Positions 35,790 through 38,313 of a DNA stretch of 64,000 nt are shown here, in pieces. The stretch is from Massalongia carnosa. Taxonomy: Eukaryota. The DNA lies in contig OZ287083.1 of NCBI GenBank assembly GCA_965645245.1, positions 1,364,001-1,428,000 on the forward strand, written 5' to 3'. The translations under genes were made by a program, and so were the position numbers. Under the pieces are notes generated by a model. That model saw nothing but the letters and a program-made list of their open reading frames with translations, was not told the origin of the DNA and searched no databases. Within the stretch, counting starts at the first letter, position 1. Every line of letters begins with the position of its first letter.

Positions 35790-36030
35790 ATACTTCCAAA
35801 CTTTCAAACCTCCAGAACTCCAGACTTGCTTACTTCCAGATTTACTTGCTTCCAGATTCACCTATTACCAGACCTACCTGCTCCCATGCTTCCAGACTCC
35901 TAGACCTACTCACTTCCAACCTCACTTCTAGACTCACCTATTTCCAGACTTACTTCCAGACTTACCTGCCCCTATGCTTCCAGACTCCTAGTCCTACTCA
36001 CTTTCAACCTTACTTTCAGACTTACCTTTT
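35790..36030. repeat. Degenerate CTTCCAGAC-type tandem array with an 88-bp higher-order duplication
   Basis: Recurrent ACTTCCAGAC/ACTTACC units. 35868-35939 and 35956-36027 are near-identical copies. Ends about 90 bp upstream of the EAF3 ATG. Confidence 0.8.
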
Positions 36031-36115
36031 CATTCATCTTTGAATATCCATTTCCATCGGCCGGTCTGAGTTCTTACTGCACAATCTCATTACCATAATC
36101 CAAACCTAACTCGTC

Positions 36116-38313
36116 ATGGCTCCTCCTAATCAGCAAGCATATGCAAAGGACGAGCGAGTGTTGTGCTTTCATCACGAGCTACTTTATGAAGCTAAAGTAT
36201 TGGAATCGAAGCTTTCGGATCCTAATGATAAGAAAAGCCCTCCTCAGTATCGCGTGCATTATAAAGGATGGAAGAATACGTAAGTGAAACTTCTCCTTCT
36301 CTATATCCAGCTTTCAGAACGGTTTGAACGTGTAGGCTGTTCTGCAAGGTTAGATGTTTTGACTTATTTTCTACGTGTAAATGCCTACTGTTCATTCTAA
36401 ACGTTGCCTTTCCTTTCCTTCCCATGCCATGTTGTTGGGAGATATAACGTTGCGCTCTCTATATCTCCCTTATTCTCATCCTCGCCTCTTTATTTCCATC
36501 ACTTTAGATGACTCGACCAACTATTTGCTGTTACGTATTTTACAAGAGCTGACGCTCCACTAACATCAGATGGGATGACTGGGTGCCACAAGACCGTCTT
36601 CGCAAACTCACCGACGAAAATATAGAGCTTGCTCGAAATCTAAAGAAAGAAATGGACCTTGTTACTAAACGCACAGCTAGCAAACCAATCACCGCCTCAT
36701 CTAAGAAGAAAGCTGCAGGCTCCGATCTCAGCTCCACCCGCGGCAGCGAAGAACGTCATTCATCAGTACCAGCTACCGGGCGAGGACAAAAGCGCGGCAG
36801 GGATTTCGAGATCGAGAAGGTTGGTGATGCTTTCTCTCCTTTAGGAGCATCTCCCGCAGCCGGCGGGAGATCATTTTTGGACTTCTCTCGGGAGTCTTCA
36901 CCTGACTTGCCAGGATTTCCATCCCCTCCTCCCTCCAAACGCCTCCGAAGAACGCCCTCTCCTGTCCACAACTCAGCAGAGAGCGGCAATGACAAGCCTG
37001 CAAGGGAGAACTTATCTCCCGAGCATGGAGCCGCTTCTCTTGCTCACTTCCCCCCCCCTCTTTCTCCCTTCTCTCCCCCCCCACCTTCCTCTCCGCTTCG
37101 GGGCAACTCAACTAGTTTGAGCTCTGCCCAACTCTCTCCCGCAAAACGCCCCCAAAAAGTACCGGCTGCAGTGGGCGGGCTCCGCCGTGGCCGGAGTGGG
37201 GGTCTCCCAAAGCCAGACGAAGCACCAGCCCTGGAGCCCTGGCGCGCGACAAAACCAACCAGGGCCTCATACAACGCCAAGCCGGTCTACCAGACCGGAG
37301 GCCTGGTCAACCAGATGAGGCTGGAACCTGAATGGGCCGCGCTAAAGTATAACCCTTGGGTGGAGGACAACCACCCAAAGATTCATTGGCTCAACGCCAA
37401 CGATGCAGGGAACCGCCCCAAGCGGAACTTTTACCGGGACACAGATCCCAACCAGGTGCTCATGATCGCGGGAGTGCCTTTGGATGAGAGCCTGGGCCTT
37501 GGCCCATCCAAAGTGCCTCCCGTTGAAGCAGCCCCCTACCTGGCTCCCAGCAACGCACCCGTTGACCCCTCCACGGAGGAAACTCGTCCCGGAAATTCCC
37601 CTGTTAACTTGACCCCATCACAGGAGGAAGCCTTCCACTCGCGCCCCTCGGTTCGTATCGTCGTACCCGACCACCTAAAGTCCATCCTCGTCGACGATTG
37701 GGAAAACGTAACCAAGAACCTTTCCCTCGTACCCCTCCCCTCGGCCCACCCCGTCAACGAGATCATGAACACCTACTTCGAGGAAGAGAAGGGGAAGCGC
37801 CGTCTCGGGTCTGCAGAAGCTGATTTGCTTGAAGAAGTTGTCGCCGGCGTAAAAGAATATTTCGATAAATGCTTGGGTCGTATCTTGCTTTATCGGTTTG
37901 AGCGCGAGCAGTACTTCGAGATCCGTCAATTGTGGGAAGCAGCAACAGGAGAATGGGAAGGTAAGGGCGCAGGAGATGTTTACGGCGCAGAGCATTTATG
38001 CAGATTGTTTGGTAAGCCTTGTCTTCCTCTCTTTCTTCACAATCTTCCCCATGCCATCCCTAGCCTCTTCTCCCACCACAGTAATAAACCCAAACCATGC
38101 TAATCTGCTAACTTCCATCGTCTCCACCCCGCGCTAACAGTGTCAATGCCCGAGCTCATCGCCCAAACGAACATGGACCAGCAATCCGTCAACCGGCTAC
38201 GCGAAGAACTCGCTAAGCTAACGCAGTGGCTCGGCAAGAACTCGGCCCGCTTCTTCACGTCAGAGTACGAGGCCGCCACCCAGGATTACATCGAGAAGGC
38301 AAGGGGCGTCTAG
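36116..38313 (+). CDS. EAF3: Eaf3/MRG15 chromodomain-MRG protein (NuA4 and Rpd3S subunit)
   Basis: Chromodomain ERVLCFHHELLYEAKV...YRVHYKGWKNT|WDDWVPQDRLRK; MRG domain PDHLKSILVDDWENVTKN...LLYRFER..VYGAEHLCRLF|VSMPELIAQTNMD. Introns 36280-36569 and 38012-38140, plus an optional in-frame intron 36820-37623. Confidence 0.95.

Follow-up and report, generated by a model that had tools for sequence, protein, structure and literature searches.

An 804-nt stop-free segment at an ancestral intron site in the Eaf3 gene of Massalongia carnosa, a probable optionally spliced coding intron

Eaf3 is the reader of methylated lysine 36 of histone H3 (H3K36me) that is common to the NuA4 acetylase and the Rpd3S deacetylase. 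The mammalian relative MRG15 occurs in a form with an extra chromodomain piece, and MRGX has no chromodomain; we know of no insert between the linker and the MRG domain in the mammalian MRG-family isoforms. Here, we analyzed the Eaf3 gene in a 64,000-nucleotide (nt) stretch of DNA from the lichen-forming ascomycete Massalongia carnosa (contig OZ287083.1, positions 1,364,001 to 1,428,000 of the forward strand; "the window"), in which a stop-free segment of 804 nt lies exactly between the linker and the MRG domain. The closest described elements are exitrons, stop-free stretches in coding exons whose removal deletes an internal, largely disordered protein region (PMC4484396). The exitrons of Marquez et al. 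2015 are defined by RNA sequencing (RNA-seq) showing both forms, with the unspliced form as the major one, and a subset is derived from ancestral exons; stop-free introns with a length that is a multiple of three are described as generally depleted (Jaillon 2008, quoted in PMC4484396). The MRG domain binds FxLP(x)2-3-hydrophobic peptides (PMC8701324). A literature search of entries and abstract beginnings, with subscription papers outside its range, returned no report of a long Eaf3 isoform or of fungal exitrons.

We conclude that the 804-nt segment is a real feature and not a product of chance. The splice signals are conserved, the spliced product is found in relatives and the insert is under coding constraint, so two isoforms are the best reading: the segment is probably an exitron-like, optionally spliced coding intron from which this organism makes a short and a long Eaf3.

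Reading and translating positions 36820-37623 confirmed the original prediction of an 804-nt segment in phase 0, a multiple of three in length, free of stops, and running from AAG/GTTGGT to TTAAC, TTGAC and a final CAG (slashes mark splice junctions). The upstream exon part ends in ...gag atc gag aag/gttggt, with the donor GT at 36820, and the segment ends in cctgttaacttgaccccatcacag/gaggaagcc, with CAG at 37621-37623; positions 37604-37632 read TTAAC TTGAC CCCATCACAG/GAGGAAGCC. The 268 encoded residues are in frame with both flanks, and each of the other five frames contains 5-10 stops. The chance of 268 open codons given the composition was 5.2e-4, and none of 3000 mononucleotide shuffles was open. 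The GC content of the segment was 0.60 (0.58 at third codon positions, GC3); it was 0.41 in intron 1, 0.50 in intron 3 and 0.51-0.53 in the parts of the exon on either side. The donor GTTGGT is moderately off consensus; GTAAGT and GTAAGC in the two other introns of the gene are the only comparators. The features of the segment are as follows.

36820-37623, forward strand: candidate exitron, phase-0 stop-free segment of 804 nt and 268 codons, with homologous open inserts in 109 relatives.
36820-36825, forward strand: 5' splice site GTTGGT, Val-Gly if retained; GTTGGT, GTCGGT or GTTCGT is found at this site in lichen-metagenome loci.
37183-37200, forward strand: RRGRSG motif, kept as RRGR(S/P) in relatives.
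37330-37500, forward strand: conserved block EWAAL..HPKIHWLN..NRPKRNFYRDTDPNQVLMIAGVPLDE, from an iterated hidden Markov model (HMM) and AlphaFold2 (AF2).
37604-37613, forward strand: branch-point-like TTAAC and TTGAC, 20 and 15 nt before the acceptor.
37621-37623, forward strand: 3' splice site CAG, Gln if retained.

The insert contains everything that had been described for it: it is rich in Pro (17%) and Ser (11%), with 11 SP and two TP dipeptides, and it includes KRLRR at 36937-36951, the RRGRSG motif and, at 37333-37404, WAALKYNPWVEDNHPKIHWLNAND. The core of an AT-hook is Arg-Gly-Arg-Pro, which is absent from the window (RRGRSG); the Sticta-type proteins P0004 and P0009 read RRGRPPGKK. 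An Rfam scan of the segment gave no match to an RNA family, on which basis an intronic RNA gene was rejected. At 37049-37082, inside the insert, two C-runs code for Pro stretches, and the contigs of one sequencing run (X4) break there with poly-C loose ends; nevertheless, the X1-X3 contigs, which do not differ from the window, keep the frame across both C-runs, as do P0003 and P0140.

The position of the segment was compared among relatives. A protein search yielded 1128 relatives among 8000 scored candidates, of which the best 120 were listed; among the matches listed, the closest named relatives are lichen-forming Lecanoromycetes, and Sticta canariensis (Peltigerales) is 53% identical over the whole query. 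From metagenome contigs, we collected 79 Eaf3 loci, in which both flanking peptide anchors were located in 34 distinct segment sequences. In all 34, the segment begins with GT and finishes with AG precisely at this codon boundary, and the position therefore represents an ancestral phase-0 intron of Pezizomycotina Eaf3. In most, a CTRAY-like site also precedes the acceptor by 10-35 nt. Plain short introns of 69-286 nt (GC 0.33-0.57) occupy the site in 12 of the 34, and 11 of these contain stops and/or are not a multiple of three in length. Judged from these sequences, the segment arose at an intron site and not inside an ancestral exon.

The protein data show the same boundaries. Both anchors were present in 124 of 139 related proteins, of which 15 lacked an insert; the inserts of the other 109 are 95-540 amino acids (aa) long, and most of these proteins are open reading frames (ORFs) from gene callers that read straight through genomic DNA. 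The last residue of the insert is Q in all 109, as a CAG acceptor gives, and the first residues are V (GTN) in 86, A-S in 22 and M in one. The boundary codons are fixed in otherwise extremely variable inserts, as selection on splice sites predicts. The 22 inserts that begin with A-S are of the Parmeliaceae type (e.g. P0068 and P0089) and would fit a putative GC-AG donor (GCN AGY).

By its sequence, the gene at 36117-38313 on the forward strand belongs to a lichen-forming ascomycete (Lecanoromycetes, probably Peltigerales) and is orthologous to Eaf3/MRG15. An N-terminal chromo-barrel is present: exon 1 is matched at 36116-36280 by residues 1-55 of the spliced relative P0027 at 85% identity (tblastn), and P0027 carries PF11717 and PF22732; exon 2 alone matches PF22732 only partially (expectation value, E, 0.022). 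The C-terminal MRG domain was identified in exon 2 by Pfam (PF05712, E 2e-43), and the MRG part of the relative P0134 aligns with yeast Eaf3 (8i3g_B) with Z 25.6 and a root-mean-square deviation of 1.6 Å over 173 residues. When the segment is kept, exon 2 spans 36571-38011 in all. The remaining parts of the gene are listed here.

36117-36281, forward strand: exon 1, with the start codon and most of the chromo-barrel; donor GTAAGT directly after.
36282-36570, forward strand: intron 1, 289 nt, GTAAGT...CTAAC..CAG; junction KNT/WDDW as in complementary DNA (cDNA)-like relatives.
36571-36819, forward strand: exon 2a, end of the chromo-barrel and basic linker, with last residues ...RGRDFEIEK; partial match to Pfam PF22732.
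37624-38011, forward strand: exon 2b, first part of the MRG domain (PF05712).
38012-38140, forward strand: intron 3, 129 nt, GTAAGC...CTAACAG; junction RLF/VSMPEL as in P0027.
38141-38313, forward strand: exon 3, end of the MRG domain, with stop TAG at 38311-38313, from sequence reading and tblastn with P0027.

The size range of about 45-130 nt first given for the introns fits intron 3 of this gene and not intron 1. A degenerate tandem array at 35819-36031, directly upstream of the Eaf3 start codon (36117), consists of ~8.8 copies of the 16-nt unit TCCAGACTTACTTACT and also shows an 88-nt period (1.9 copies, score 256).

Spliced forms were identified in relatives. On short Logan and JGI contigs (~1-4 kb), 22 ORFs contain chromo and MRG parts; intron 1 is joined in all of them and intron 3 in 21, and we infer that they are derived from mRNA because the intron 1 junction is joined. 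All 20 cDNA-like ORFs with both anchors read EK/EE or an equivalent junction, with the segment precisely absent. The predicted spliced junction of the window, EIEK-EEAFHSRPSVRIVVPD, is the junction of the short relatives, in agreement with the earlier claim that splicing gives a protein like short fungal Eaf3. The spliced P0027 was seen on 21 contigs. Compared with the genomic ORF P0005, it has 78 of 79 residues of exon 2a in common and differs at two residues over the MRG exon part (~98% identity in the flanks), and P0005 carries an open insert of 277 aa. Thus, a very close relative of the window's gene splices out, in vivo, an insert that is just as open.

Public gene models of Eaf3 disagree on the insert. 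It is kept in the NCBI models of Sticta (611 aa), Xylographa (~545 aa), Umbilicaria vellea (524 aa) and Loxospora, and it is missing from the public models of Lasallia (325 aa), Stereocaulon (320 aa) and Ramalina (331 aa), so annotation of Eaf3 needs isoform-aware evidence. The NCBI model of Usnea florida (P0127) joins GRGQK/HSKIKFTDKPQQQ-EETFN, thus using another donor, and an acceptor placed 13 codons upstream; the cDNA-like P0079, from the same 90% cluster (Usnea type), has the canonical EK/EE junction. For Exophiala dermatitidis (P0169, P0167, P0250 and P0342), NCBI models of 930-965 aa have an insert of 605-640 aa at this site, which does not contain the conserved block, and there are also 325-aa models and a cDNA-like spliced ORF of 360 aa. 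The annotated isoforms KIV98112 and KIV98113 of Exophiala mesophila (PV10_01793; P0339 and P0263) were considered as a retained form and rejected, since they differ by intron 1, from which 85 residues are read, and not by the segment. Intron 1 of Eaf3 is stop-free and in frame also in the Eurotiomycete-type P0146, P0205, P0218 and P0221.

Coding constraint was evident from the inserts themselves. Among Peltigerales-type sequences, the identity to the insert of the window is only 23-37%, and in-frame islands are kept there: VGDxxSP, SSPGLPGF, KRLR, SSxLSSxPPSP, RRGR(S/P), NLMxLxPEYP and AKRxFFxGQxPxxVLMIAGVPxE. The 5' half of the segment is open in the window and in Peltigerales-type relatives, with conserved islands that are continuous with the upstream exon. 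In a pair of open loci, L016 and L017 (87% nt identity), the three indels of 24, 3 and 33 nt are all multiples of three, whereas eight of the nine indels are not in the closed pair L023 and L027 (86% nt identity). The ratio of nonsynonymous to synonymous substitution rates (dN/dS) was computed for five pairs over the open stretch that precedes the MRG exon.

L010 and L070: 249 codons, dN/dS 0.30, with 0.03 in the MRG exon.
L016 and L017: 339 codons, of which ~88 belong to the upstream exon, dN/dS 0.37, with 0.035 in the MRG exon.
L001 and L002: 150 codons, dN/dS 0.17, with dS saturated.
L024 and L059: 177 codons, dN/dS 0.60.
L017 and L020: 347 codons, dN/dS 0.70, with few changes.

A conserved block lies near the 3' end of the segment. 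An iterated HMM of this block found it in 106 of 230 proteins, including those of Umbilicaria, Xylographa, Loxospora, Candelaria, Pleopsidium, Pycnora, Alectoria, three Chaetothyriales and Endocarpon. The block thus occurs across Lecanoromycetes and in some Eurotiomycetes, and the idea of a lineage-specific module was abandoned. In an AF2 run with ~100 aligned relatives, residues 271-290 of the exon-2 protein of the window (P0001; nt 37381-37440) had predicted local distance difference test (pLDDT) values of 92 and 91, with predicted helices at residues 269-277 (PKIHWLNAN) and 282-289 (RPKRNFYR), and the rest of the insert was below ~55, which agrees with the ordered-looking block of the original prediction. 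The homologous stretch of Umbilicaria vellea P0134 had pLDDT values of 93 and 91, with residues 138-243 below 50.

The block gave no match in Pfam, nothing at E <0.5 in a PDB sequence search and no usable match in an Atlas search, and a structural comparison with the PDB aligned the chromo and MRG parts only. A phmmer search with the 62-aa block against 1.84 billion representatives returned five matches. Only two of them, P0003 and P0006, are Eaf3, and the remaining ones match in 5-7 separate stretches; the search is too insensitive to judge whether the block occurs outside Eaf3. The block alignment contains no FxLP motif, LMIAGVP being spaced differently. In Leotiomycete-like loci, stops lie directly after the donor, but the MRG exon is preceded by 197-465 open codons that continue into it in frame and hold a block-like HPKL..YY..LP(I/L)AGI element. 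Homology of this element to the lichen block was tried and rejected, with E ~0.05 only (P0106 and P0110) and no match in the Glarea and Pseudogymnoascus models. An internal start before the block (NQMRLEPEW) was also rejected, as only 42 of 96 distinct block contexts have the Met. A second kind of open insert, in frame, 777-789 nt long, Lys/Ala/Pro-rich and without the conserved block, is found in L012, L016, L017, L019 and L020, and it has a spliced cDNA-like counterpart in P0090. For L031, a cassette exon was considered and rejected, because no consistent donor was found.

Several observations weigh against the production of two isoforms. No retained cDNA-like form, with introns 1 and 3 removed, was found in two directed protein searches with residues 1-140 (near lengths) and residues 30-200 (shorter lengths) of P0004, which returned only NCBI models, genomic ORFs reading through intron 1 and spliced forms. 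Every RNA-like sequence found is a spliced form; wherever a chromo domain accompanies the insert, the sequence is either an NCBI model of unknown support or a genomic ORF from read-through. For the window itself, the only sequencing runs found to contain it are of the DNA type; the contigs of the four runs compared are identical to it and without joints, and the spliced form is seen in relatives only. All dN/dS pairs come from lineages other than that of the window, and the pairs L024 and L059 and L017 and L020 are weak. The list of open inserts carries a bias, since a long ORF can arise only where the intron is open. Of the 22 long segments in the unbiased locus sample, no more than 6 stay open over the whole length between donor and acceptor, and these six are of the L001 and L012 types, representing ~2 of 14 lineages. 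L004, L008, L013, L023, L026, L027 and L050/55 are closed, and L002 is shifted by one base near the 5' end, leaving the block in frame with the downstream exon only. L022 (4235-5272, 1038 nt) is open over 332 of 346 codons and has an acceptor TAG in frame; its retention would give a chromo-plus-tail protein without an MRG domain. The many closed or shifted frames, among them decayed ones in several other lichen-metagenome lineages, indicate that the long form has been lost repeatedly and is therefore not essential everywhere. Of the proposal that exitron splicing gives two isoforms, the splice signals, the spliced product in close relatives and the constraint were thus borne out; no taxon searched yielded a retained mRNA.

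One alternative is a long intron that is always removed, with an open frame and peptide-like conservation that are untranslated. The 20 of 20 cDNA-like ORFs spliced at EK/EE, the two directed searches without a retained form, the closed or frame-shifted state of most long-intron lineages and the splice signals kept everywhere all agree with it. We nevertheless consider it improbable, since it has to account for a probability of ~5e-4 for the open frame, for exclusively in-frame indels in the open pair as against frame-breaking ones in an equally diverged closed pair, for in-frame motifs kept at 23-37% identity, for dN/dS of 0.17-0.37 in three of five pairs and for a block with a predicted pLDDT >90. 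Stop-free introns of this length class are also reported as selected against (Jaillon 2008, as cited by PMC4484396), and the segment has no Rfam match. Another alternative is that the segment is an ordinary constitutive exon in this species, with GT...AG ends that are disused relics. Against it, no open version has lost the donor, the branch-point-like site or the CAG (Q is the last residue in 109 of 109), which argues for continued use, and the spliced P0027 on 21 contigs is from a taxon ~98% identical in the flanks to the open-insert P0005. The exon-like composition (GC 0.60, GC3 0.58), the departure of GTTGGT from GTAAGT and GTAAGC at positions +3 and +4, and the insert kept in the NCBI models of Sticta, Loxospora, Xylographa and Umbilicaria vellea would fit such an exon, which we regard as very unlikely.

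Just as doubtful is a segment that is coding only in part, through an internal acceptor that keeps the block and the MRG domain, or an internal start that gives the block and the MRG domain without the chromo domain. This would explain why L010, L024/25, L043, L059 and L070 have stops after the donor and 197-465 open codons, including the block-like element, that run into the MRG exon; it would also suit the block of L002, in frame with the downstream exon only, and the Met just before the block in the window (NQMRLEPEW). However, the 5' half is open in the window and in Peltigerales-type relatives, with the islands VGDxxSP, SSPGLPGF, KRLR and RRGRS, more than half of the distinct block contexts lack the Met (it occurs in 42 of 96), and the Leotiomycete element is only weakly similar (E ~0.05). 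Optional splicing of a coding intron remains our preferred and probable explanation.

In this explanation, a phase-0 intron site of ancient origin, preceded by the basic linker (...EIEK) and followed by the MRG domain (EE.F...), holds a long, code-carrying intron in this lineage. Splicing, as seen in relatives, would produce the canonical short Eaf3 of ~324 aa, probably from the main mRNA, and retention or partial retention would produce a long Eaf3 of ~592 aa, as the coding constraint suggests. The long form would contain ~170 disordered Pro/Ser-rich and SP-rich residues with KRLRR and RRGRSG, followed by the short structured block, a small helical module that is predicted to sit ~40 residues before the MRG domain. 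It may alter the binding of DNA, nucleosomes or partners by the MRG module. As for the origin, either an ancestral intron grew and gained code, or an ancestral coding stretch beside the intron may have become skippable via a distal acceptor. A role of the block and the motifs in contact with DNA or the nucleosome, or in the choice of MRG partner, is plausible, and the originally proposed partition of Eaf3 between NuA4 and Rpd3S is conjectural. A broader scenario, in which an old intron with the EYP..HPxL..AKRxFF..QDP..LMIAGVP module and RRGR(S/P) predates the diversification of Lecanoromycetes, and perhaps the split from Eurotiomycetes, and in which regulated retention switches between Eaf3 forms, the module packing on or beside the MRG domain and changing its partner (Eaf7-type in NuA4, Rco1-type in Rpd3S) or DNA, is speculative and, taken as a whole, unlikely. 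If this organism makes both forms, a conserved long Eaf3 with a structured module beside the MRG domain, where partners bind, would add a new point of control over the choice between NuA4 and Rpd3S in filamentous and lichen-forming fungi, and the segment would be a clear fungal case of a stop-free intron, a multiple of three in length, kept as code over long evolutionary time.

Compared with known systems, the segment resembles exitrons (PMC4484396) in its length of a multiple of three, the lack of stops, the GT-AG ends inside an apparent coding exon, the internal and largely disordered protein region that its removal would delete and a GC content higher than that of ordinary introns; it is internal to the coding sequence, without a stop, and has canonical splice sites and a branch-point-like site. 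It differs in that exitrons are defined from both RNAs in one organism, whereas the segment was read from DNA and spliced RNA-like contigs were found only in relatives, and in that its GC content is above that of the flanking exons, whereas that of Arabidopsis exitrons is below. An origin from an exon, as in a subset of exitrons, does not apply here, because all 34 locus segments have an intron at the site, 12 of them a short plain one. With the mammalian MRG isoforms, the two predicted Eaf3 forms share one reader family with differences outside the MRG domain, and they differ in site and mechanism. The MRG-binding FxLP peptides (PMC8701324) are similar in that a short conserved hydrophobic element with flanking helices lies beside the MRG domain, and different in that the block has no FxLP. 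The plain Pezizomycotina Eaf3 intron shares the position of the segment (after ...E.EK and before EE.F), the GT...YAG ends and the CTRAY-like branch point. It is 69-286 nt long, and in 11 of 12 examples stops interrupt it and/or its length is not divisible by three, whereas the segment of the window is 804 nt long, open and conserved at the peptide level, and runs against the general depletion of stop-free introns with a length that is a multiple of three.

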